Positions 21,762 through 37,989 of a stretch of DNA of 64,000 nt are shown in pieces (the first letter of the stretch is position 1; each line of letters starts with the position of its first letter). Location of the stretch: assembly GCA_027493545.1 (NCBI GenBank), contig JAOSKR010000003.1, positions 117,360 through 181,359 of the forward strand, given 5' to 3'. Origin of the DNA: Roseovarius sp. Lineage in GTDB: Bacteria; Pseudomonadota; Alphaproteobacteria; Rhodobacterales; Rhodobacteraceae. Position numbers and translations under genes: made by a program. Under the pieces are notes generated by a model, which was not told where the DNA came from, did not search any database, and saw only the letters and a list, made by a program, of their open reading frames with translations.

Positions 21762-21920
21762 GGCTCGGCCCCTCCCGCCACCGGCCCGCGCCGAAAAAGC
21801 CGAGACCGCGCGCCCCATCGTTCGACGCCTCCGGGGGCGATTTCGGACGTGCTGGTTGGCACGCCCTGGCCCGGTCAGGAAAACGCAGCCAAATCGGTCC
21901 AGCCCGAGCCCGCACGCCAA

Positions 21921-22333
21921 TCAATTCGCAACATTGGCGGCCAGTTCGCGGGGCATGTAGTCTTCGTCGTGCTTGGCGAGGATCTCGCTCGCCTGGAACT
22001 GGCCGTTCACCAGCCGCCCGGTGGCGATCGCCCCCTCGCCCTCGGCGAAGAGGTCGGGGAGCAGACCGCCATAGACCACTGGCATCGAGCTTTCGCCATC
22101 GGTAAGGCGGAAGGAGACCGCCGTGCCGTCGCGCAGCAGGCTGCCAGCCTCGACCATGCCGCCGAGACGGAAAGTCTCGCCCGGACCCGGCGCGTCGGCG
22201 GGGTCTGCGACGGCGTGCGGAAGAACCGGATGCCGTCGCGCATTGCGTGCCCGATCATCGCGGTCGAGAGCGCAAGCGCCAGCGCCGCCACGGCCAGCAG
22301 CCGGATGCGGCGGGACTTGTGCAGCCGGCTCAT
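21921..22333 (-). pseudogene. ccmE: cytochrome c maturation haem chaperone CcmE, one frameshift
   Basis: The N-terminal anchor [43 protein letters not shown] is in ORF 22007..22333. The OB-fold part ...GETFRLGGMVEAGSL...ILAKHDEDYMPRE (haem-binding His in KHDE) is in ORF 21921..22358. The junction is near 22210. Confidence 0.8.
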
Positions 22334-23610
22334 CCCGACAAGCCCGATGCACGGGCAAAGGGCAGTTGCAACTCGCGCCAGCAGCGCGCCAGTGCCGTCA
22401 CCAGATCGTCCATCATCTCGTCGTCATGCAGCGGCGTGGCGGTGATGCGCAGCCGCTCGGTCCCGCGTGGAACCGTGGGATAGTTGATCGGCTGGAGGTA
22501 GATCGCGTGTTCGCCAAGAAGCCGGTCGCAAAGCGCCTTGCACCGCGCCGCATCGCCGACGATCACCGGGACGATATGGCTGGGGGCGTCGAGAAACGGG
22601 ATGCGCTCGCTGGCAAGAAGCCGCCGCAACCGCGCGGCGCGCTCGTGCAGCGCGGCGCGCTCGCGGCCGCTCCGGCGCAGATGCCGCACCGATGCCAGCG
22701 CCCCGGCGGCGACCGCGGGCGGAACTGCGCTGGTAAAGATGAAACCGTTGGCGTGGCTGCGGATCGCATCGATGATGGAACGGTCCGCCGCGACATAGCC
22801 GCCGATCACGCCATAGGCCTTGGCGAGCGTTCCCTGGACGATGTCGATTTCGCCGGCCACGCCGTCGCGCTCGGCGACGCCCGCGCCGGTAGGGCCGTAC
22901 ATGCCCACCGCATGCACCTCGTCGAGATAGGTGAGCGCGCCATGCTCACGGGCAATCTCGACGATCTCGCCGATGGGCGCGATGTCGCCGTCCATCGAAT
23001 AGACCGATTCGAAGGCGATGATCTTGCAACGCTCGCGCGGCAGCCCCAACAGCAGTTCGTGCAGGTGATCGAGGTCGTTATGACGGAAGATGCGCTTTTC
23101 CGCGCGGCTGGTCAGCACGCCCTGAATCATGGAGGCGTGGTTGAGCTCATCCGACAGGATCACGCAATCGGGCAGCAGCCGGCCCAGCGTGGCCAGCGTG
23201 GCGAGGTTGGCGAGATAGCCGCAGCCGAAGACCAGCGCGCCGGGCTTGCCGTGCAGCATCGCCAGTTCACGTTCCAGCGCGACGATGGGTCCGTGATTGC
23301 CCGAGATGTTGCGGGTGCCGCCCGCGCCCGCCCCGAAATCGTCGATGGCCTCCTTCATCGCCTGGCGCACGCCGGGGTGCTGGCCCATGCCGAGATAGTC
23401 GTTCGAGCACCAGACGGCGATGCGCCGTTCCTCGGCGCCTGCGATGGCCATCGACCATGGAAAGCTGCCGACGATCCGGTTGTGCTCCTGAAAGACACGA
23501 TAGCGCCCTTCCTCGACCAACCCGTCGACCGAGCCCTGCAACAGTGCAAGGTAATCGGGCGTGGCCCCCTCCGGGTCGTTCGCCCCCATCCGCAGGACAG
23601 TCGTGTTCAT
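22330..23610 (-). CDS. hemA: 5-aminolevulinate synthase (PLP-dependent, HemA/HemT type)
   Basis: ATG at 23610 follows GGAGGAAGG. ...[17 protein letters not shown]...[14 protein letters not shown]...SMDGDIAP...GTLAKAYG...TATPLHDD... ATGA overlaps with ccmI upstream and ccmE downstream. Confidence 0.85.
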
Positions 23611-24581
23611 GGCCTTCCTCCCGTGGTTCCGCCGGTAATGTCGATCATCTCGAGCATGGAGCGCACCCGCGCCGTCGCCGGGTGTTCCGGCGCCAGCCGG
23701 ACCGCCAGCCATTCCAGATCGGCCCGAGCCGCATCGGGCCGGGCCAGTCTCAGATTGAGCAGGGCGCGATACCAATGCGCCTCGGCCAGATCCGGGGCGG
23801 CAGCCAGCACCGCCCCGACCTGGTCGAGAAGCTCGGCGGCAGGCGGCGCATCGGGCGTCTCGATCACCATGCGCAGATAGTTCATGCGAAATTCCAGATC
23901 GTCGGGATACTGCTCCGCCGCCGCAGCGAGCACCTCGGGCGCTTCCGCCTCCCGGCCCAGCACGCCATAGCTGCGCAGGAGCATCCGGTAGTCGTCGGAC
24001 GTCGCCGCGCCGTCGCGAACACGTGCCTCCAGCCGGGCGACCATCGCGCCGATATCGGGCGCGCCGTCGGCGGTCATCGGCATGTCGGGTGGCAGGGCAG
24101 GGGCCGCGGCGGAGGGTGCCTCGATGGGAATGCGGCCATCGGCATGGGGCGAGACGGTCATGTCGATGTCATTCCAGGATGCGGCGCGGCTCACGCCGAA
24201 GGCCGCCGCGGCAACGCAGAGCATCGTGAGGGCCGAGCCGATGCGCCCCGGCATCCGCGCTTGGGGGCCGTCGACGGGGTCGAACGCGTCGCGCGCGCGG
24301 CGCAGCGCCTCGAGCGCGGTCTCGGCCTCGGCGGCAAGGTGGCGATTGTTGAGCCCGTGCGCGGCCTGGTCAATTCGGCCTTCGGCCAGCGCCATGTCGT
24401 TCTCGCGCAACTGCCCGGTCAGGCGGTCCTTCTCGACCTGCCAGCGGTCCACGGGGTCGCGGCTCTCCACGCCGCGGCCGAGCGCACGGTTGGCCGCCGG
24501 GCGAAAGAGCGGCAGCGCCACAAGACCCGCTGTCAGCAGCACGAGGCCGATGGCCATAATCGCGGGAACGGTCATCGTCAT
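23607..24581 (-). CDS. ccmI: cytochrome c-type biogenesis protein CcmI (CycH)
   Basis: [26 protein letters not shown] (TM) ...[26 protein letters not shown]... A second TM is followed by a TPR-like C-terminal region. ATGA overlaps on both sides. Confidence 0.7.
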
Positions 24582-25021
24582 GGTTCCAACTCCTCGAGCC
24601 GCGCTTCGGTCAGCTGGGCATGGGTCTCCGGGGTGTCCTTCCCGGGGCCGCGCAGCCGGTACACCAGCAACAGCGCGAGCCCCGCGCCGCCGATCACCAG
24701 AAGTACGGGGACCAGCCAGATCACGGCTCCGGGTCCGGTCGATGGCGGCGAGAGCAGCACGTAATCGCCGTAGCGCGCCCGGAAGAATGCCATGATCTGC
24801 GCGTCCGAGCGCCCCTCGATCACCTGCTCGCGCACCAGTTCCAGCATCTCGCGCGCGGTGCCGGAATGGGAGTCGAGGATGTTTTCGCTCTGGCAGACCG
24901 GACAACGCAATCCGGTGGCGACGGCGCGCACGCGCGCCTCGGCGGGATCCTCGCCGACCAGACGCCCGGCCCAGAGCGGCGCCGCGGTCAGCGCCAGAAC
25001 GAAGGCCAGCACGAGCCTCAT
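24578..25021 (-). CDS. ccmH: cytochrome c-type biogenesis protein CcmH (CycL)
   Basis: MRLVLAFVLALTAAPLWA signal followed by LRCPVCQSENILDSHSGTAREM (the LRCxxCQ motif) and a C-terminal TM. Confidence 0.85.
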   Translation of the reverse strand: MRLVLAFVLALTAAPLWAGRLVGEDPAEARVRAVATGLRCPVCQSENILDSHSGTAREMLELVREQVIEGRSDAQIMAFFRARYGDYVLLSPPSTGPGAVIWLVPVLLVIGGAGLALLLVYRLRGPGKDTPETHAQLTEARLEELEP

Positions 25022-25578
25022 GGCGTCACCCCGATCCGTGGCATCGCCTCGGCGAGGACGGCAGCGGTGAGCGGGCCGGCGTGACGCATCCGCACGATGC
25101 CCCCGGCGTCGATGAAGAACGTCTCGGGCATTCCGTAGACGCCGAAATCTATGCCGAGCCGTCCCCTCGGGTCGTGACCCGATGGATAGGGAAAGCGGCC
25201 CTCCCGCGCGAGATAGGCGGCGGCCCTGTCGGGGTCGTCGCGATAGTTGATGCCGGCGATCCGAAAGGCGCCGCTGGTCTCGCTGAACTGGCCCAGACGA
25301 ATGAGTTGAGCATGTTCCTGCCGGCACGAGGTGCACCAGGATGCCCAGAAATTCAACACCAGCGGCTCTCCCGCCAGATCGGCCGAGCGCAGCACCCCCT
25401 CGCGCTCGAGATAGGCGATCTCGAAGGCGGGCATCGGCTGGCCCACGAGCGCCGAGGGCAGTCGGCCGGGCTCACGCGTGAGGCCGATGGCCAGAAGCCC
25501 CAGCAGCGCCAGCGCCGCCGCGCCGAGGGCGTAGCGCCAGCGTGCCGGGCGTCTTGGGGACTGCGTGACGTCGGTCAT
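25018..25578 (-). CDS. ccmG: periplasmic thiol:disulfide oxidoreductase CcmG/DsbE
   Basis: N-terminal anchor followed by LVLNFWASWCTSCRQEH (thioredoxin CxxC) and GVYGMPETFFID. Confidence 0.85.
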   Translation of the reverse strand: MTDVTQSPRRPARWRYALGAAALALLGLLAIGLTREPGRLPSALVGQPMPAFEIAYLEREGVLRSADLAGEPLVLNFWASWCTSCRQEHAQLIRLGQFSETSGAFRIAGINYRDDPDRAAAYLAREGRFPYPSGHDPRGRLGIDFGVYGMPETFFIDAGGIVRMRHAGPLTAAVLAEAMPRIGVTP

Positions 25579-27587
25579 TGCGCGGGTACTCCCCTGGCCT
25601 GTGGTGCGGGTCGGCGCGTGCAAACCCCAACCATGCGGGTGCGTTCGGTCAGCGACAGCGCCGCGCCCGCCAGCACCACCGCCCAGCCGATCCAGATCCA
25701 CGACACGAGCGGGTTCCAGAAGAGGCGCGCGATCAGCCGCCCGTCTGCGGACTCATCGCCCATCACGGCATAGAGATCGCCCCAGGCTTGCGGCCGGAGC
25801 GCAACCTCGGTGGTGGTCATGGCGCGGATCGGATAGAATCGCTTTTCGGGACGCAACTCGAAAAGCGGACGGCCGTCCCCGGCGACGCTGAAGGTCGCGC
25901 GCCGGCCCTGATAATTGGGCATGTCGATGTCGGCGATGCCGCGCAGGGTGATGACATGGCCCGCGATCTCGACGGAATCGCCGCGCCGCATCTCGACCGT
26001 CGCCTGGCTCTGGAAAAGGCCCGAGCCGATCATGCCCACCGCGATCAAAACCATGCCCAGATGCACGATCAGCCCGCCGAAACGGCGGCGCGACCGGCTC
26101 AGCACCATGCCCGCCGCCCGCGCCCACGCGACCCCGCCCGAGCGGCGCCGCGCCGCGACGGCGAGCGACATGTCGGTGAGGATGGCGGTGGCGGCAAAGA
26201 CCGCTCCGGCGATCGACAGCAGCGTGAGCGGCGCGCGAATGCCCAGGCCGAGTCCGGCGGCAAGCGCTGCCGCGGCGAGCGCGAAGGGCAGCCGGAAATG
26301 CCGCAGGAACCGCGCGGAGGTCATGCCGCGCCAGGGGATCGACGGGCCGATCCCCATCAGGAAGAGGAGCGCCACCATCACCGGCGCAACGACCTTGTTG
26401 AAGTAGGGTGCCCCGACGCTGAGTTTCTGACCCGTCACCACCTCGACCGCCAGCGGGAACAGGGTACCGATGAAGACCACCGCGGTGACGACCAGCAGAA
26501 GCACCGAATTGGCGAGGATCGCGGTCTCGCGCGACAGGGCGCCTTCGAGCCTGGCTTCCGACTCGAGCATCGTGGCGCGCCAGATGATCAGCCCGTAGCC
26601 GGCGGTCATCGCCAGTGCGAGAAAGCCCAGCATGTAGGCCCCGCGCCCCGGATCGACGGCGAAGGCATGGACCGAGGTCAGAACGCCGGAACGCACCAGA
26701 AAGGTGCCCAGCAGTGTCAGCAGGAATGTTGTCACCACGAGAAAGACGTTCCAGCTGCGAAACATCCGGCGCTTTTCCTGCACCATCATCGAATGCAGCA
26801 GCGCCGTGCCCGCGAGCCACGGCATCAGCGACGCGTTCTCGACCGGATCCCAGGCCCAGTAGCCGCCCCAGCCGAGCTCGTAATACGCCCAGTAGCCGCC
26901 GAAGATGATCCCCGAGGTCAGCGCCGTCCGGGCAAAGAGCGTCCAGCGGCGCACGGCCGTCACCCATTCGTGTCCGACCTGCCCGCGGATCAGCGAGGCG
27001 ATGGCGAAGGCGAAGGGCACGGCAAATCCGACATAGCCCAGGTAGAGAACCGGCGGATGGAAGGCGAGGCCCGGATCCTGCAGCAGCGGGTTGAGGTCGC
27101 GGCCGTTCGCCGGGACGGGCGTCAGGCTCGCGAAGGGGTTGGAAAGCAGCAGGATGAAGGCCAGGAACCCGGCCTGAATCGCGGCCAGTGTCGCGATGAT
27201 CCACGGCATCGACAACGGATGCTCGCGCCAGTGCAGCCAGAGCGCGGCGGCGGTGAAGAGCGAAAGGTACCACGCCCAGAGCAGCAGCGAGCCCTCATGC
27301 GCGCCCCACATCGCGGTGAACCGGTAGAGCAGCGGCAGTTCGAGATTGCTGTTTTGAGCCACATAGGCGACCGAGAAATCCGAGATCACGAAGGCATGGA
27401 TCAACGTCGCGGCGCCGGCGCTGAGAAGCGCAAGATTGGCGAACATGGCGTTGCGGGCCGCAACCAGGCGCGCGGGGGCGCACTGACGCACCGAAAGCAC
27501 CGCCCGGGCGATGGCAAAGACACAGAGCACCAGCGCGAGGCCCGCCGCCAGTTGCCCCAGTTCGGCGAGTGTCAGCGTCATGGACAT
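25575..27587 (-). CDS. ccmF: cytochrome c haem lyase subunit CcmF
   Basis: 670 aa within ORF 25575..27716. Polytopic, with the WGGYWAWDPVEN (WWD) motif and conserved His-containing loops. ATG at 27587. Confidence 0.9.
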   Translation of the reverse strand: MSMTLTLAELGQLAAGLALVLCVFAIARAVLSVRQCAPARLVAARNAMFANLALLSAGAATLIHAFVISDFSVAYVAQNSNLELPLLYRFTAMWGAHEGSLLLWAWYLSLFTAAALWLHWREHPLSMPWIIATLAAIQAGFLAFILLLSNPFASLTPVPANGRDLNPLLQDPGLAFHPPVLYLGYVGFAVPFAFAIASLIRGQVGHEWVTAVRRWTLFARTALTSGIIFGGYWAYYELGWGGYWAWDPVENASLMPWLAGTALLHSMMVQEKRRMFRSWNVFLVVTTFLLTLLGTFLVRSGVLTSVHAFAVDPGRGAYMLGFLALAMTAGYGLIIWRATMLESEARLEGALSRETAILANSVLLLVVTAVVFIGTLFPLAVEVVTGQKLSVGAPYFNKVVAPVMVALLFLMGIGPSIPWRGMTSARFLRHFRLPFALAAAALAAGLGLGIRAPLTLLSIAGAVFAATAILTDMSLAVAARRRSGGVAWARAAGMVLSRSRRRFGGLIVHLGMVLIAVGMIGSGLFQSQATVEMRRGDSVEIAGHVITLRGIADIDMPNYQGRRATFSVAGDGRPLFELRPEKRFYPIRAMTTTEVALRPQAWGDLYAVMGDESADGRLIARLFWNPLVSWIWIGWAVVLAGAALSLTERTRMVGVCTRRPAPQARGVPAQ

Positions 27588-29076
27588 GACACGACCTCGG
27601 CGTCGCTCATGCAGGCGGCGAGGGCGGCGATCGCGTACCGGATGGTCCTTTCGTCGATCGCCGCATAACCCAGCAGGAGATGGCCGCGGTGGCGGCGGTT
27701 GTCGGGCGAGATCCACGAGCCGCCCGAGCCGGGCCGGTAGACGCCGATGCGCCGGAGCGCCGCGCGTCTTTCCAGCCGCGTCGCGTCGGCACCGCCGCCG
27801 GGCAGCCGCAACGACAGGTGCATTCCCGCGCGGTGGCCGAAGGTGGGCGCATCGGGGAAATGCAGTGCCAATTCGGACAGGAGCGTGTCACGGCGGCTCA
27901 TGTAGAGCGCCCGGATGCGCCGCAGGTGCCGCCGGAAACCGCCGCAGGCCATGAACTCGCCCATCGCCGCCTGTTCCAGCCAGGGCGCGCAGTTGCTGCT
28001 GAGCTGCTTCCAGCGCTTCAGCAGCACCACCACCCCCCGGCGAGGCGATGACGAAGCCCAGCCTCAGCCCTGGCCCGATGGACTTGGAAAAGGTGCCGAG
28101 ATAGATCACCCGCCCGGTCCGGTCGAGCCCGCGCAGCGCAGTGAGCGGCGCCCCCTCGTAGCGGAACTCGCCGTCATAGTCGTCCTCGATGATCAGGCTG
28201 TCCGTCCGCTCGGCCCAGTCGAGCAGCGCCAGGCGGCGTTCCAGTGTCATGGTCATGCCGATCGGATACTGGTGCGAGGGGGTGACATAGAGCAAGGAGG
28301 GGCCGCGTTCGGGCAGCCGTTCGACCTCGATTCCCTGCGCGTCCACCGGAACCGGCGTGCAGGTCCAGCCGGTGCCGTGAAAGGCGAAGCGTGCGCCCTG
28401 ATAGCATGGATCCTCGTGCAGGAAGGTGTTGCAGTGATGCCCGAACGCCTGTGCGATCAGCGTGAGCCCGTCCTGCGAGCCGCCGACGATGACGATATCC
28501 TCGGGGTCGGCGGGAATGCCGCGCGCGGGTCCGATGTGATCGGCGATGGCCTGCCGCAGCACCGGCAGGCCCTGCGGGTCTCCATAGGACGACAGCTGCG
28601 GCGCAACCGTAGCGCAGCTTGGTGTCGAGAATGCGCCGCCACTCGCGTGCGGGAAACGATTTGGGTTCGACCTTGCCGATCCAGAAATCCACCTGCATCC
28701 GCGCGCCATCGGGGTTGGTCACCGATTGCACCTCGGGCAGCGGCGCCAAGGGCGCCGTGAAGGGGGACGGACGGAGCGCCGGATCGGGCACCAGCGCAAG
28801 ACGGCCCGACGCCCGCATCGCCGCGTCGGGGAGATTGGAGCTGACGAAGGTGCCGACGTTCGCGCGGCTCTCGATGTAGCCCTCGCTCAGCAGCTTCTCG
28901 TAGGCGATGATGACGGTGTTGCGCGATACGCCCAGCTGTTCGCTGAGCGCGCGCGACCCCGGCATCGGATCGCCGCTGCGCAGCTTGCCATCGAGGATCA
29001 GCCGCTTGACCGCATCGAAGACCTGGGTCTGAAGCGTGCGCGTGTCATCGGGGTCAATCGTGAGAACGACCTGCAT
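27578..29076 (-). pseudogene. MocR-type regulator (GntR wHTH fused to a PLP-dependent aminotransferase-like domain), two frameshifts
   Basis: The wHTH ...PMPGSRALSEQLGVSRNTVIIAYEKLLSEGYIESRANVGTFV is in ORF 28174..29172 (ATG 29076). The aminotransferase-like body is in ORF 27888..28709 (...YGDPQGLPVLRQAIADHI...GTFSKSIGPGLRLGF...). The tail is in ORF 27578..28033. Junctions are near 28615 and 28030. The 3' end overlaps the ccmF start by 10 nt. Confidence 0.8.
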
Positions 29077-29125
29077 TGCCGGAACCTCCTCCGGTCCCAT
29101 GCTATCACGATGTCGGGAGTTTTTC

Positions 29126-29145
29126 ATGATTCCGGGATGAATCAT
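29126..29145. promoter_or_regulatory. inverted repeat upstream of the MocR-type regulator (candidate operator)
   Basis: ATGATTC-cgggat-GAATCAT (arms 29126-29132 and 29139-29145) lies about 50 nt upstream of the ATG at 29076, in the only AT-richer spot of the 114-nt gap between haoB and the regulator. Confidence 0.25.
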
Positions 29146-29190
29146 TTCCATGAGTCCGCCACGGGTCCGCATCGGGCGGCTTGCGGCGCG

Positions 29191-30211
29191 TCACAGCCCG
29201 GCCGTGGTGGGTTCCAGACGGTACACCCAGTAGCCGCCGGTCTGATAGACCAGCCTTGTGCCGGGTACCTGCCCGATGGCGGCCGAGTCGAATGGCAGGA
29301 GCTGACCCAGCAGGGTGCTCTTGTCGCGCGCGTCCGACAGGACATAGGCCCGGATCGTATCGCCGCCGCGGCGCTCGACGGCATAGGCGGCGTGGCCCTC
29401 GGCCGCGACCCAGTCCTTGACCGCGCGGGACTTGTCATGCGCGATGCCCGCGGCAGGAAAGTCGCGCTGCCCGACATGGATCCGGTCCGGGGCGTTCAGC
29501 CCGATGTCGAAAATGTCGCGGACATGCACGATCACATAGCCTGGCCGTGCCCCGCCAAGCGCCCGCAGCCGGGCGGCGCCGTAGATGTCTTCGGCCAGCA
29601 GCGCGTCGATCAGCACCGTGAAGGCCTCACCCGGCTCCCCCGCGACGCGCGATGCGGCCGGTTCCGCGTGCCAGCGTGCCTCGGTCCGTGTCACGGCGGC
29701 CTCGGTTCCGGTCCGGGGCGGGCAGGCGCAGAGCCGCCTGCGCCGCCGCCCCGGCCAGCGGGAACTCGGCCGGAATGAAATGCGCCAGCCGCTCCGAGAG
29801 CGCGGGCATGGCGATCACCGTGCTGCCTTCGGGCAGATGCTTGCGCAGCGCGCTGGCCAGCGCCAGCTCTTCCTGCGCGGAAACGTCCGAACGCAGGACC
29901 GGCTCGGGTGCCCGGCTCCGCCAGCCGACGATCACCTCGGCGCCATCGGTCATGGTGACGATCTCGGCGGTGGCGACGGCGCGATCGGGCTCGGTCGTCC
30001 GCAATTCGAGAGACGAGGCCACGGCGCCGGGCACCAGCTCCGCAAGCTTCACCGCGGCCTCCGACGGGGCCTCGGCGCCCGCCTCGTAACGATAGGGCGG
30101 CAAATCGGCGGCCGGTACCGACCAGCGCGCGGTGCCCCAGAGCGCCGCCCCGCCCAGACCCGCGAACGCCGCGATCGCGGCCGTGGATGTCACCAGACTC
30201 CGTCTTGTCAT
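29191..30211 (-). pseudogene. haoB: HaoB-like (hao orf2-like) anchored periplasmic protein, one frameshift; assignment is by position and topology only
   Basis: ORF 29627..30211 (MTRRSLVTSTAAIAAFAGLGGAALWG anchor/signal) and ORF 29191..29694 overlap by 68 nt. Both have natural-looking sequence only on one side of about 29715, which implies a single ~340-aa product directly downstream of haoA. Confidence 0.45.
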
Positions 30212-30274
30212 GTCTTCGCCTCCCGCGAGAAAAACCCCGGCCCGGGGGGCCGGGGATGTCTGCCGGTGCCCCGG

Positions 30275-31855
30275 TCACTCGGGGCTTTCGAGCTTGCGGA
30301 TCCGCTCCAGTATCGCGGCCTTCTCTCGCAACTGGGTGTCGGCATCGCGGATGCGGATCCCCTGGCGGAGCAGATGCGACCAGGCATTGGTGTAGGTGAA
30401 GCCACCCGGGTTGGCATGGGCCACGCCCTTGAAGACGCTCATCAGGCGTTGTTCCCACATCTCGGTGAACTCGTAGTCGATCGCCGAAGGGTTGTTGCCG
30501 TCGGCCCAGAAGAGCGAGTAGAAACCACCGGGAGCATCCTTGGCCGGCTCCGGCGGCAACGGACGGTTGGTGGTCTGGCCCACCAGCAGCTTGTCGTCAT
30601 AGAGAGCCTGCATGACCGTGCGCGCCTCTTCCACTTCGTCGACCGCATCGATCGTGACCTGGTCGATGATCTCGAAGTAGCTGCGGGCGAAGCTGTCGGA
30701 ATGGCACTGGCCGCAGGTCGCGATCCAGGATTCCTTGCGGCCCTCGAACCATTCATGCCCGAGATTGTCGGCGATGGATTTCATCGGCTGGAACCCCCAG
30801 CGGACCTTCTGAACGAGGTTGTGGCCGTACTCGCCGTCCTTCTCGAAGTGGCAGGTCTGGCAGGTCGGGCCGGTCTGGCCGCCCTTCTCGAAGGCTTCCT
30901 TGAGAGGCAGTTCCCAATCCCATTCGTCGCCATGGGCAGTATAGATCACGCCGTGCTTGGACATCATGAAGTTCTCGAACTCGGGGTGATCGACACCGTT
31001 GTGGCAGGTCGAGCAGGCTTCGGGCTTGCGTGCCTCCACGGCCGAGAATTCATGCCGCGTGTGGCAGGAATTGCAGGTGTTCTGCGAGGTGTGACACATG
31101 GTGCAGCCCTCGGCCACCTCGCGTTCCTCCATGCCGGCCCAGATCGCGGTCTCGTAGTTGGCCAGCATCGCGAGCGCGTGCGAAGGCCGCCCGTCGGGCC
31201 ATTGCCCCTGTGGCCAGATCGCGGTGTCACGTTCGGATTCGCGTTCCGCGAACTGCTGTAGATGGCACTGACCGCAATCGCCAGCATCGGGCATGCGCAG
31301 ATCGGTCTTGTGATTGCCGGCCTTGGTGCCGATGCCCATGTGGCAATCGATGCAGCCTACCTCCTCGAGCTGTTCGCCCTCGTTCAGCAGACCCATCGAG
31401 ACCAGGTTGGTCTCGACCTGCGCGATGATTTCCTGCTTGTAGAACCGTGAATCGGCTTCGGTCAGTTCGCGGATTTCGTCGAGGTCGCTGTGGACGCTCT
31501 TTTCCCAGGAATGGACCCAGCCCGGCGTCACCCCCTGGTGACATTCGACGCATTCGCGTGCCGTGACTTCGAAATCCAGGTCGGGCCCCTCGTAGAAGAG
31601 CCCCGGGCTCATGTATTTCGAAAACTCTATCGGCTCCCACAGATCGGCGAAGGCGCCCTTGCTGTAGCCCTGAGCGGGCTCGCGGTAGCGCTTCACGATC
31701 GCCTCGTAGAGCACGTTGGGCGCGGCGTTGCGCTCCAGCCCGAGCGCATCGAACAATTCATCCGGGATTTCAGCCTGCGCAGGCGGCACCAGGGCTGCCA
31801 GCGCCAGACATGCCCCCCCCGCAACGGCTCTCATCCATTCTCCCAAGCCGGTCAT
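30275..31855 (-). CDS. haoA: octahaem cytochrome c, hydroxylamine oxidoreductase (HAO) family
   Basis: 526 aa. Signal peptide ...LVPPAQA/EIP. Eight CxxCH motifs (CVECH, CIDCH, CGQCH, CTMCH, CNSCH, CSTCH, CQTCH, CGQCH). Blocks FAERESERDT, GRPSHAL, REVAEGCTMCHT, CHTRHEFSA, RKPEAC and SKHG read like Nitrosomonas HAO as I recall it. NPGGFTYTNAW retains the cross-link Tyr (codon 30392-30394). Confidence 0.9.
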   Translation of the reverse strand: MTGLGEWMRAVAGGACLALAALVPPAQAEIPDELFDALGLERNAAPNVLYEAIVKRYREPAQGYSKGAFADLWEPIEFSKYMSPGLFYEGPDLDFEVTARECVECHQGVTPGWVHSWEKSVHSDLDEIRELTEADSRFYKQEIIAQVETNLVSMGLLNEGEQLEEVGCIDCHMGIGTKAGNHKTDLRMPDAGDCGQCHLQQFAERESERDTAIWPQGQWPDGRPSHALAMLANYETAIWAGMEEREVAEGCTMCHTSQNTCNSCHTRHEFSAVEARKPEACSTCHNGVDHPEFENFMMSKHGVIYTAHGDEWDWELPLKEAFEKGGQTGPTCQTCHFEKDGEYGHNLVQKVRWGFQPMKSIADNLGHEWFEGRKESWIATCGQCHSDSFARSYFEIIDQVTIDAVDEVEEARTVMQALYDDKLLVGQTTNRPLPPEPAKDAPGGFYSLFWADGNNPSAIDYEFTEMWEQRLMSVFKGVAHANPGGFTYTNAWSHLLRQGIRIRDADTQLREKAAILERIRKLESPE

Positions 31856-31927: not shown

Positions 31928-32130
31928 CTAGACCCGACAGGGTGGAAAGATTTGGGTCCGGTGGTTCATCTCCCATGCTCGCCGCTCACGCGGGCCGATC
32001 ACCCGCGCGGTTCGGGCGCACAGGCCTTCGACGCCGCGCAGCGAGAGCGGGAAACGAGTATCCATCATCACCGCAAGGCGGATGACCTCGGGGCTGGTCC
32101 GGAAATGGCGAGGGGGTTGGGCTTGCCCAT
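31928..32130 (-). mobile_element. IS6-family transposase gene remnant (N-terminal ~55 codons, frameshifted and truncated)
   Basis: The reverse strand reads MGKPNP..(shift)..RHFRTSPEVIRLAVMMDTRFPLSLRGVEGL..., resembling the FR.F.TSPE(I/V)IRLAVM.Y.RFPLSLR.VEDLL N-terminus of IS6/IS26-family transposases. Recognisable sequence stops well short of the expected length, about 70 nt before the haoA start. Confidence 0.5.
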
Positions 32131-36314: not shown

Positions 36315-37989
36315 GCGGGGGCCATGACGCGGTGGTGATCGGATCGGGCGCGGGCGGGGCCGCGGCCGCGTGGCGGTTGTGCGCGCACGGTCTGCGGGTG
36401 CTCGTGCTCGAGGCGGGTCCGGCCTTCGATCCCGCCCGCGACTATCCGCAAGACCGCCCGGGATGGGAACTGCGGGGCTTTCCCGAACGCCCCGGCAGCC
36501 GGGCCGTCGTCAGCTACGGCGATCTCGGGCAGCTTGATCCGGCGGATGCGGACCTCGGTTCATGGTCGCGCGCCGGCTTTCCCTGGCGGCTGCCCGCGGG
36601 CGCGCCGCGTCCGCCGTCGGGGCGCGGCTATAGCCATGTCCTGGGGGTGGGCGGCAGTACGCTGCACTTCGTGGGCGAGCAGCACCGGCTGCATCCCGAT
36701 GCCTTTCGCCTGTTCAGCCTGACCGGCAAGGGTGCCGACTGGCCGATCGCCTATGACGATCTCGAACCCTATTACACCATCGCCGAGGAAATGCAGCTGG
36801 TCGCCGGCGCGGGCGCAGCCCCGGGGCGTTGGCGCAGCCGCGGCTTTGCGCAAAGCGCCCATCCGCTCGGCCCCGGGGCGCGCGCGGTCGTGGCGGCGGG
36901 ACGGCGGCTCGGCCAGGACTGGCAGGTGAACCCGCGCGCCACCCTGTCCGCGCCCGACGCCGGCCGCCCCGCCTGCAACTACTGCGGGCAATGCGCGCGC
37001 GGCTGCCCCCTGGGCGACAAGGGGTCGGTCGAGGTCACCTTCCTGCGCGTGGCCGCCGCCACCGGACGGCTCGATCTTGTCAGCGATGCCACGGTGACGC
37101 GGCTCCACGCCGGTCCGGACGGGCGGATCACCCATCTTGACGCGATCGTTGACGGGCAGGGCGAGAGCATCGAGACGCCGCTCGTCGTGCTCGCCGCGGG
37201 GGCGGTTCAGACGCCGCGCCTGCTGCTGCTTTCGGCGGATGCCGATCATCCGCAGGGTATCGCCAATTCCTCGGGCGAGGTCGGGCGCAACTTCATGGAA
37301 ACCCTGTCGTGGCAGACGACAGGGCTGGTCGCGGGGCTCAGCGGCAGCCATCTCGGCCTGCCCGACGACGCCATCTGCTGGGACATGGCGGCACCGGGGC
37401 GGGTGCCGGGCCATGCCGGCGGCTTCGTGCTGAAGCATACGACAGTCGAGACCGGGCTGAACGGGCCGATTGCCTATGCCACGCGGCTGGTGGCGGGTTT
37501 CGGCGCTTCGCTCAAGACGGCCCTGCGCGCGCGGTTCGGCAGTGCGCTGAGCGTCGGGGCGGTCGGACAGCTGATCCCCGATGAGCAAGCCCGCGTCGGC
37601 CTCGACCCCGGACTGCGCGATGCCCACGGGCTGCCCGCCGCGCGCATCGAATCCGTGCTGACGGCCGAGAGCCGCGCGCTCCTGCGCGAGATGGCCGGCG
37701 CCGTTCGCACCCTGCTGGCGGAGGCGGGGGCGGAACCGGTCGAAGAAACCGGCAGCCGTGATGCCTTTGCGGCGCCGCATGTCTTGGGCACTGCCCGCAT
37801 GGGCGGCGATGCCGGCCGTTCGGTGGTGGGCCCCGACGCGCGCGCCCATGATCATCCCAACCTGTGGATTGCTGACGCCAGCATCTTTCCGACATCGGGG
37901 GCGGTGAATCGCCGAGCCTCACGATCATGGCGCTGGCCATCCGCGCCGCCGATGCGATCACCGGCAACATGATCGTGTCGGGACAGTGA
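36305..37989 (+). pseudogene. GMC-family FAD oxidoreductase (flavoprotein subunit), one frameshift near the 3' end
   Basis: GHDAVVIGSGAGGAAAAWRL dinucleotide fold and ...CNYCGQCARGCPLGDK...HVLGTARMGGD...NLWIADASIFPTSG. After the G5 run 37897-37901, the natural end GGESPSLTIMALAIRAADAITGNMIVSGQ-stop (37987-37989) is in the +1 frame; a G6 would restore it. Confidence 0.8.

Follow-up and report, generated by a model that had tools for sequence, protein, structure and literature searches.

A predicted P460-type hydroxylamine oxidoreductase heading a nine-gene cassette in a Roseovarius heterotroph

The 64,000-nt stretch of DNA analysed here (the window; Roseovarius sp., GenBank assembly GCA_027493545.1, contig JAOSKR010000003.1, positions 117,360 to 181,359 of the forward strand) contains a gene for hydroxylamine oxidoreductase (HAO). 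HAO converts hydroxylamine, which arises in nitrification as a reactive and leaky intermediate, to nitric oxide (NO) or nitrite. Comparative analyses show that this gene stands at the head of a conserved nine-gene cassette in a Roseobacter-group heterotroph. It is quite likely that the cassette encodes a genuine P460 HaoA together with HaoB, that it serves to detoxify hydroxylamine, and that the frameshifts seen within it are assembly errors. Abundant marine heterotrophs of the Roseobacter group and related Alphaproteobacteria would then be equipped with an HAO cassette that is complete, regulated, and self-maturing.

The occurrence of hao in organisms that do not oxidise ammonia, Silicibacter pomeroyi and the methanotrophs included, is mentioned in a passage of PMC2802487 that cites Moran 2004 and Bergmann 2005. 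The presence of hao in non-nitrifiers, S. pomeroyi included, is known since 2004-05, and the gene set is present in a model genome of 2004. Literature searches found no paper describing the cassette of nine genes or the mocR and hemA genes in it, and nothing specific on hao-ccmF or hao-MocR links in Alphaproteobacteria.

The HAO protein and its catalytic residues

The haoA gene (30275..31855, minus strand) encodes a 526-aa exported octahaem HAO of the short form. A preliminary description of this DNA had reported an exported protein of this length with exactly eight CxxCH motifs; the open reading frame (ORF), the motif scan, and the signal-peptide alignment all agree with it. The motifs lie at aa 102, 168, 194, 251, 261, 281, 332, and 381, and no CxxCK was found in the motif scan of the 526-aa protein. 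The first 28 residues of the N-terminus (MTGLGEWMRAVAGGACLALAALVPPAQA/EIPDE), which end in AQA/E, match the signal peptide of the Nitrosomonas europaea HAO (NeHAO). The protein matched PF13447 with 475 bits. When all PDB sequences were searched, the best match was NeHAO 6m0p (E 7.5e-190, query 4-524), and the NeHAO structures 4fas and 1fgj gave E-values of about 5e-186 (4fas 4.7e-186). The next matches were anammox proteins: the HAO-like 6h5l (5.8e-49), HOX 4n4j (KsHOX; 5.8e-36), and the hydrazine dehydrogenase HDH (2.7e-31). The protein had been described as an oxidative HAO rather than a reductive relative, and the difference between 7.5e-190 for NeHAO and 6e-49 to 3e-31 for the anammox enzymes upholds this. 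The blocks that had been described as nitrifier-like (FAERESERDT, GRPSHAL, REVAEGCTMCHT, CHTRHEFSA, and RKPEAC) have the same letters in NeHAO in the PDB-search alignment.

The motif NPGGFTYTNAW starts at aa 482 and contains Tyr488 (codon 30392-30394, TAC), which had been proposed as the cross-linking residue. Residues 437-524 of the window HAO pair without gaps with residues 416-503 of 4fas; therefore Tyr488 corresponds to NeHAO Tyr467 (mature; Tyr491 in the precursor), which, by established structural work on NeHAO, is the residue cross-linking the P460 haem. In addition, D289/H290 pair with NeHAO Asp267/His268 (mature; D291/H292 in the precursor). A family alignment of 132 sequences was built with MAFFT, including the window HAO, NeHAO, 119 database homologues, and 11 proteins from fetched loci. 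Tyr488 (opposite NeHAO Y491), D289, and H290 are conserved in 132/132 sequences, and all eight haem motifs are kept in 130-132 of the 132. Eight further His residues (122, 182, 226, 268, 290, 301, 345, and 480) are kept in at least 98% of the 131 full-length HAOs. Their number fits seven bis-His haems plus the catalytic His; seven of them are the presumed distal ligands.

The window HAO shares about 51% sequence identity with NeHAO, 57% with the Methylocystis HAO, 73% with the Ruegeria pomeroyi HAO, and 89% with the Roseovarius spongiae HAO. A phylogeny had been suggested earlier as a check. The neighbour-joining (NJ) tree places the protein inside the Tyr-bearing HAO clade, in a Rhodobacterales-type subclade of this radiation. 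Short-class enzymes (520-535 aa) account for 20 of 120 among the HAO matches listed. They lack the C-terminal hydrophobic anchor of the 565-575-aa alphaproteobacterial forms, and no C-terminal transmembrane (TM) segment is present in the window HAO, which is therefore expected to be a wholly soluble periplasmic enzyme. The Methylocystis HAO, in contrast, is of the long anchored form. Compared with N. europaea HaoA (PDB 1fgj, 4fas, 6m0p), the window protein has full-length homology, eight c-haems, the Tyr, the Asp-His pair, and a signal peptide; however, it lacks the C-terminal extension of about 40 aa of the 570-aa NeHAO precursor. As judged from sequence, in which all the determinants are present, the window HAO is a genuine oxidative P460-type octahaem HAO. 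Identity as a reductive octahaem enzyme was considered and was rejected because the Tyr is present.

Tyr-bearing, NeHAO-like HAOs (55-57% identity) were also found in anoxygenic phototrophs and in one Thermodesulfovibrionales genome (L013). The phototroph loci belong to Thiorhodococcus, Halochromatium, Thiocapsa, Chromatiaceae, and Gammaproteobacteria metagenome-assembled genomes (MAGs; L008-L012), a Chloroflexaceae MAG (L006), and a Chlorobium MAG (L007). In the NJ tree, these HAOs are nearer to NeHAO than the alphaproteobacterial HAOs are.

Members and distribution of the nine-gene cassette

The cassette spans window positions 21921-31855 on the minus strand, roughly 10 kb. It contains hao, haoB, mocR, ccmF, dsbE, ccmH, a gene for a tetratricopeptide-repeat (TPR) protein (CcmI-like), hemA, and ccmE, in this order and all co-oriented. 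These nine genes result alike from gene calls on near-identical contigs, from family scans, and from the R. pomeroyi DSS-3 megaplasmid as annotated in RefSeq. The preliminary description had taken the neighbours of hao to be catabolic genes. This holds for the distant flanks, which are of heterotroph type, but not for the immediate neighbours, which are MocR, ccmF-dsbE-ccmH-TPR, hemA, and ccmE.

The haoB gene (29191..30211, minus strand) encodes a membrane-anchored periplasmic protein, 340 aa when intact, and lies directly downstream of hao with a spacer of 63-65 nt (63 in the window). The haoB/orf2 gene of N. europaea likewise follows hao immediately. In the window, haoB carries a 2-nt deletion near 29715 and is read as two ORFs that do not share a frame: 29627..30211 encodes 194 aa, and 29191..29694 encodes 167 aa. 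HaoB is covered by the family models TIGR04392 and PF27869. The two fragments match TIGR04392 separately with 68.2 and 167.4 bits, and the intact 340-aa protein of near-identical contigs scores 257.9 bits against a cutoff of 200. The anchored protein of about 340 aa that had been placed downstream of hao is thus HaoB in its intact allele, although it is split between two frames in the window. No Pfam match was obtained for HaoB in the Pfam copy scanned, so its identity comes from the NCBIfam model. A hydrophobic N-terminal TM segment covers about aa 5-25. An AlphaFold2 model from an 18-sequence alignment was of moderate quality (pLDDT 68.9, pTM 0.67). A Foldseek search of this model against the PDB gave nothing at E <= 0.001, and matches spanning the model had TM-scores of at most 0.27; the methyltransferase-like top matches were rejected as noise.

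The mocR gene (27578..29076, minus strand; 1-nt insertions at 28605 and 28033 in the window) encodes 498 aa when intact. The intact allele combines a GntR winged helix-turn-helix domain (PF00392) with a fold-type-I aminotransferase-like pyridoxal 5'-phosphate (PLP) domain (PF00155). It matches the PdxR/MocR/GabR models (417 bits for the PdxR model) and aligns to the GabR and PdxR structures, and the PLP-lysine motif TFSK(S) is kept. The ccmF gene (25575..27587, minus strand) encodes a 670-aa haem lyase of the CcmF/NrfE family, of an HAO-linked subfamily, with 594 bits to TIGR00353 and an intact WWD motif (WGGYWAWDPVEN). Strict NrfE identity was rejected, since TIGR03145 gave 558 bits against a cutoff of 927. 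The dsbE gene (25018..25578, minus strand) encodes a DsbE/CcmG-like thiol:disulfide oxidoreductase of 186 aa (TIGR00385, 127.8 bits; WCTSC motif). The ccmH gene (24578..25021, minus strand) encodes a CcmH/NrfF-like protein of 147 aa (PF03918, and weakly TIGR03147; LRCPVC motif). The TPR gene (23607..24581, minus strand) encodes a membrane-anchored protein of 324 aa in the CcmI/NrfG position. This protein had no Pfam match of its own in the Pfam copy scanned and was identified by orthology: it is 35% identical to an orthologue at locus L021 that bears PF23914 (TPR_CcmH_CycH), and the R. pomeroyi copy is annotated as TPR. The hemA gene (22330..23610, minus strand) encodes a 5-aminolevulinate (ALA) synthase of 426 aa (TIGR01821, 592.6 bits, cutoff 338) with an intact PLP lysine, and the R. 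pomeroyi cassette copy is annotated as hemA. The last gene, ccmE (21921..22333, minus strand; 1-nt deletion at 22199 in the window), encodes a haem chaperone of 137 aa when intact, with 167 bits to NF009731 and a KHDEDY haem-binding motif. The motifs named for DsbE, CcmH, and CcmE are intact, as is that of CcmF. From mocR to ccmE, start and stop codons overlap by 4-10 nt; therefore these seven genes, which are translationally coupled, very probably form one operon. The G+C content reaches about 68-70% across most of the cassette (about 22-30 kb), against about 64% in hao and the 30-36 kb flank. This mild step is compatible with the gain of the cassette as a unit.

The exact window HAO protein is present on many public metagenome contigs. 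Over 16-18 kb, four contigs from Logan (L014-L017) match the window at 99.5-99.9% identity; their haoB is intact (340 aa), and so is the gene for the GntR-aminotransferase protein (498 aa). Relative to all four of these independent assemblies, the window indels, about 11 in about 20 kb, fall at identical positions, most of them in or beside homopolymer runs. The 1-2-nt indel sites are 22199, 28033, 28605, 29715, 30244, 32399, 33761, 37897, 40712, and 41009. Within the cassette, they correspond to the 2-nt loss in haoB (29715), the 1-nt gains in mocR (28605 and 28033), and the 1-nt loss in ccmE (22199); flanking genes outside the cassette are also hit (32399, 33761, 37897, 40712, and 41009). 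Against L015, 11 gapped positions and 11 mismatches were counted in 18.5 kb. The reading frames of hao, ccmF, dsbE, ccmH, the TPR gene, and hemA are intact in the window. The frameshifts in haoB, mocR, and ccmE are most probably assembly artefacts of the unpolished long-read pattern, because the genes are intact in the four assemblies and the indels are mostly homopolymer-associated and as frequent as substitutions. Other ORF calls in the window should therefore be read with caution.

The nine-gene order was also found in the R. pomeroyi DSS-3 megaplasmid, R. spongiae, HGW-Alphaproteobacteria-1, 'Proteobacteria bacterium PRO6', and a Xanthobacteraceae MAG. In HGW-Alphaproteobacteria-6, the order could be followed as far as the contig end, and a 927-kb contig has the cassette order without hemA. 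The cassette proteins share 37% to 91% identity across the carriers. Among named genomes, that of Roseovarius spongiae is closest (76.5% nucleotide identity across the 10-kb cassette), so the host most likely belongs to the Roseobacteraceae. Close HAO homologues number in the hundreds and come from Hyphomicrobiales, Methylocystis, Hyphomicrobium, and Rhodobacterales MAGs. A megablast search of the 22 kb around hao against plasmids gave only matches at the level of leuC and hemA, and no close replicon.

On the R. pomeroyi megaplasmid (NC_006569, 204.5-214.3 kb), the order and orientation of the nine genes are identical to those in the window. The encoded proteins share 73% (HAO), 51% (HaoB), 59% (MocR), 66-67% (CcmF), 71% (HemA), and 60% (CcmE) identity with the window copies, and RefSeq already annotates haoB, hemA, ccmE, and the CcmF/NrfE gene in this cluster. 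Like the window host, R. pomeroyi is a non-nitrifying heterotroph of the Roseobacter group. The flanks are different. The R. pomeroyi cassette has hisD on one side and a truncated haemoglobin gene, ccoNOQP, and an Rrf2 regulator gene on the other, whereas the window cassette lies between leuCD and genes for a hydrolase and a GMC oxidoreductase. The megaplasmid location and the different flanks in R. pomeroyi indicate that the nine genes move as a unit. Right after the R. pomeroyi cassette (L018, 23892-29312) come the gene for a truncated haemoglobin of group III, one for a DUF2189 protein, the cbb3 oxidase operon ccoNOQP, and one for an Rrf2-family regulator. It is plausible that these neighbours are partners in NO handling and as an electron sink. 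None of them adjoins the window cassette.

The hao cluster of the ammonia oxidisers (hao-haoB-cycA-cycB, with amo elsewhere) is different. In the window, hao-haoB is followed not by cycA (c554) and cycB (cM552) but by mocR, the ccm genes, and hemA. The methanotroph mHAO (haoAB; Methylocystis, Methylococcus, Methylacidiphilum) is a non-nitrifier HAO that is thought to remove hydroxylamine (PMC12636513). Methanotrophs produce their own hydroxylamine via the particulate methane monooxygenase, whereas no such source is seen in the window. In Methylocystis sp. ATCC 49242 (L019; 13203-14738 and 19694-20974), a MocR-type gene lies beside haoAB in divergent orientation, and, unlike in the cassette, no ccm or hemA genes are adjacent. 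The MocR-hao association therefore reaches beyond the ccm-bearing cassette. A phage-type integrase gene lies a few kb from this Methylocystis locus. DnfR is a MocR-family regulator of the dirammox (dnf) hydroxylamine pathway of Alcaligenes (PMC12575085). The two systems are alike, by family, in having a MocR-type regulator within the hydroxylamine-metabolism cluster of a heterotroph; however, DnfR targets DnfABC, which is unrelated to the octahaem HAO.

The 120 best database matches to the cassette CcmF served as its relatives; their identities to it fall from 100% to 49%. Of the top ones, at least 14 lie on contigs exactly equal in length to contigs of the top HAO relatives, and adjacency was verified for one pair. 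The identities of HAO and CcmF to the window copies co-vary (Spearman 0.85, 16 pairs). The cassette CcmF is only 42-45% identical to the housekeeping CycK of Sinorhizobium meliloti, the Escherichia coli CcmF, and a Phaeobacter plasmid CcmF. The hao-linked CcmFs from Alphaproteobacteria and Magnetococcales cluster in a single clade of the NJ tree, and these three types fall outside it. S. meliloti CycK sits in the classical ccmI-ccmE-ccmF order, which differs from the F-G-H-I-hemA-E order of the cassette. The Halochromatium locus runs hao, a HaoB-like gene (146 bits, less than the cutoff), ccmF, and ccmH, with a CcmF of another lineage. The hao-adjacent CcmF of Chromatiaceae was tried as a member of the cassette CcmF subfamily and was rejected (42% identity, outside the clade). 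In comammox Nitrospira, ccm genes lie in the hao/amo region, and in Ca. N. inopinata ccmF is directly downstream of hao (bioRxiv 10.1101/138586; PMC6131200). Links between HAO and System-I lyase genes are therefore recurrent, and in Alphaproteobacteria the two are co-inherited.

NrfEFG is a client-specific paralogue set of CcmF/H/I (PMC12285233). The E. coli-type nrf system and the cassette both have genes for a CcmF paralogue, a CcmH-like protein, and a CcmI-like TPR protein next to the gene of the multihaem client. The NrfEFG client has an unusual CXXCK site, whereas the window HAO has only CxxCH. Unlike NrfEFG, the cassette adds ccmE, dsbE, hemA, and a regulator, and its CcmF is below the strict NrfE cutoff. 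A separate accessory ccmF-dsbE-ccmH-ccmI set was found on the Phaeobacter gallaeciensis plasmid pP11_b (L023, 6839-13190) and on about 20 other Roseobacter plasmids. It occurs with a DsbD-domain protein and small cytochromes c, and it adjoins Tn7-like tniB/tniQ. This set is unrelated to hao, and its CcmF is 44-45% identical to the cassette CcmF.

Proposed function and alternative explanations

A mechanism for the cassette may be proposed as follows. The MocR-type PLP regulator would switch the cassette on, for which DnfR is a precedent. HemA would raise the supply of 5-aminolevulinate and haem, and the cassette CcmE, CcmF, DsbE, CcmH, and TPR proteins would load eight haems per monomer, with CcmABCD provided from elsewhere. 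The exported HAO would trimerise, and Tyr488 would cross-link the catalytic haem of the neighbouring subunit. The soluble periplasmic enzyme could then oxidise hydroxylamine to NO or nitrite. The electrons would be passed to a general soluble c-type cytochrome and then to a terminal oxidase; the last step is suggested by the cbb3 operon that adjoins the R. pomeroyi cassette. The outcome would be hydroxylamine detoxification or scavenging with some extra respiratory electrons, and not lithotrophic nitrification. A detoxification role has been proposed likewise for the methanotroph mHAO.

Several points weigh against this reading. The active-site Tyr358 of NeHAO is replaced by Gln356 in the window HAO. 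However, NeHAO is the only one of the 132 aligned sequences with this Tyr. The others have E, N, A, or Q, with a nearby Phe conserved instead; Tyr358 is therefore not family-defining. All eight haem sites are standard CxxCH, so there is no obvious demand for a special lyase, and the 64 kb gave no proof that this genome has a further, housekeeping ccmEFGHI set. Indirect support for such a set comes from the megaplasmid location of the R. pomeroyi cassette and from the identity of only 42-45% between the cassette CcmF and housekeeping CycK. No electron acceptor gene was found in the cassette or in the 64 kb, and no hydroxylamine source (amo or pmo) was found in the 64-kb window. The literature searches found no functional study of a Roseobacter HAO, the R. 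pomeroyi orthologue included. If the frameshifts were real, haoB, mocR, and ccmE would be pseudogenes in this strain.

This last point leads to the explanation that the cassette is decaying, with an unregulated HAO without HaoB at most, or no HAO at all, which we consider distinctly unlikely. The given sequence does split haoB near 29715, mocR at 28605 and 28033, and ccmE at 22199. However, the other six genes are intact, the indels are about as frequent as substitutions, lie mostly at homopolymers, and break flanking genes too, and four independent assemblies have intact genes. It is very unlikely that the HAO acts in vivo as a reductase of nitrite, NO, or hydroxylamine, in the manner of epsilon-Hao and the anammox HAO-like reductases. 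The octahaem family does have reductive members, and neither a c554-type acceptor nor a hydroxylamine-producing enzyme lies nearby, but the window HAO has the cross-linking Tyr at the aligned position, and the whole clade keeps it without exception. Reductive octahaem members reportedly lack this Tyr (Haase et al. 2017). In addition, the protein is about 140 orders of magnitude in E-value closer to NeHAO than to the non-cross-linked Kuenenia 6h5l, and HaoB is conserved with HAO, as in nitrifiers and methanotrophs.

The ccm genes, hemA, and mocR might also be ordinary housekeeping genes that merely lie beside hao, with no specific functional link. The two lyase-related points named above would agree with this, as would the CcmF, which passes only the generic CcmF/NrfE model and not the strict NrfE model. 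Against it, Rhodobacterales and Hyphomicrobiales share the nine-gene order, with the R. pomeroyi megaplasmid copy in different flanks, and the F-G-H-I-hemA-E order departs from the alphaproteobacterial ccmI-ccmE-ccmF order. The CcmF tracks HAO and not host taxonomy, and S. meliloti CycK is as distant from it as E. coli CcmF. The hao-ccmF linkage recurs with another CcmF lineage in Chromatiaceae and also in comammox Nitrospira, and MocR adjoins hao-haoB in Methylocystis, where ccm genes are not adjacent. An explanation by mere adjacency is therefore unlikely. At the other end, the nine genes might form a self-contained mobile hydroxylamine-oxidation cassette, in which MocR senses NH2OH via a PLP oxime and the lyase and the ALA synthase are dedicated to HAO. 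The lyase set and the private ALA synthase would then be needed for the 24-haem HAO trimer where the housekeeping machinery fails. We regard this as possible but doubtful, and the sensing by PLP-oxime formation is speculation. The attack of hydroxylamine on a PLP aldimine to give an oxime is classic inhibition chemistry of PLP enzymes.

If the HAO of the hydroxylamine-detoxifying cassette is expressed, the carriers may consume hydroxylamine from ammonia oxidisers, and they may emit NO or N2O precursors. Surveys that use hao as a marker would count them as nitrifiers or methanotrophs. If the self-contained cassette were true, it would include a new sensing mechanism and a second client-specific Ccm system after NrfEFG, and many marine and soil Alphaproteobacteria would act as hydroxylamine sinks or NO sources that have gone unrecognised. 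Because R. pomeroyi DSS-3 is open to genetic work, the cassette is a tractable system. The role of HaoB, private maturation and haem supply for multihaem enzymes, and hydroxylamine sensing could be addressed with it.

Candidate regulatory elements and surrounding genes

The hao-haoB spacer contains a GC-rich hairpin of nine G-C pairs followed by a T-run (30235..30255, minus strand), recognised by consensus match only, with a loop 2 nt shorter in the window than in the Logan contigs. It is a putative intrinsic terminator or attenuator, and the hao transcript could exceed the haoB transcript. A terminator-like hairpin downstream of ccmE (21801..21817, minus strand; likewise a consensus match only) probably marks the end of the cassette. 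About 100 nt upstream of the hao start, CCGGACCCA (31953..31961, minus strand) is a candidate operator or promoter element, and related motifs are found upstream of hao in L001, L004, L005, and L018. Tandem GCGGACCCGTG / GCGGACTCATG repeats in the haoB-mocR spacer (29149..29170, minus strand) are a candidate regulator-binding site; the repeat motif is also found upstream of mocR in L005 and L014-L017. Sites of the (C/G)CGGACCCA type, which lie some 100 nt ahead of hao and shortly ahead of mocR in several cassette carriers, were located at L001 9913-9923, L004 9898-9908, L005 6423-6433 and 9223-9233, and L018 13681-13691. Positions of the motif SCGGACYCRWG cluster upstream of hao and mocR across the loci. 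In the window alone this motif is not significant, with 3 matches against 1.48 expected, and 19 of 100 shuffles reach 3. The (C/G)CGGACCCA-type motif may be a candidate MocR operator.

No other credible CxxCH ORF was found in the six frames of the 64 kb. The sole other CxxCH lies in a low-GC3 (G+C at third codon positions) shadow frame (36757-37137) that overlaps the GMC oxidoreductase gene. Therefore no c554, cM552, or other cytochrome partner is encoded in the 64 kb. The absence of amo, c554, and cM552 from this stretch had already been noted, and the heterotroph gene context is in line with it. The distant flanks encode PhaC, a dimethylglycine (DMG)-dehydrogenase-like protein, MttB, ABC transporters, a hydantoinase, and PrpD. 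Further window genes are leuCD and those for the GMC oxidoreductase and Mla proteins. An Rrf2-family regulator gene is located at 593-1090 on the plus strand, about 30 kb from hao.

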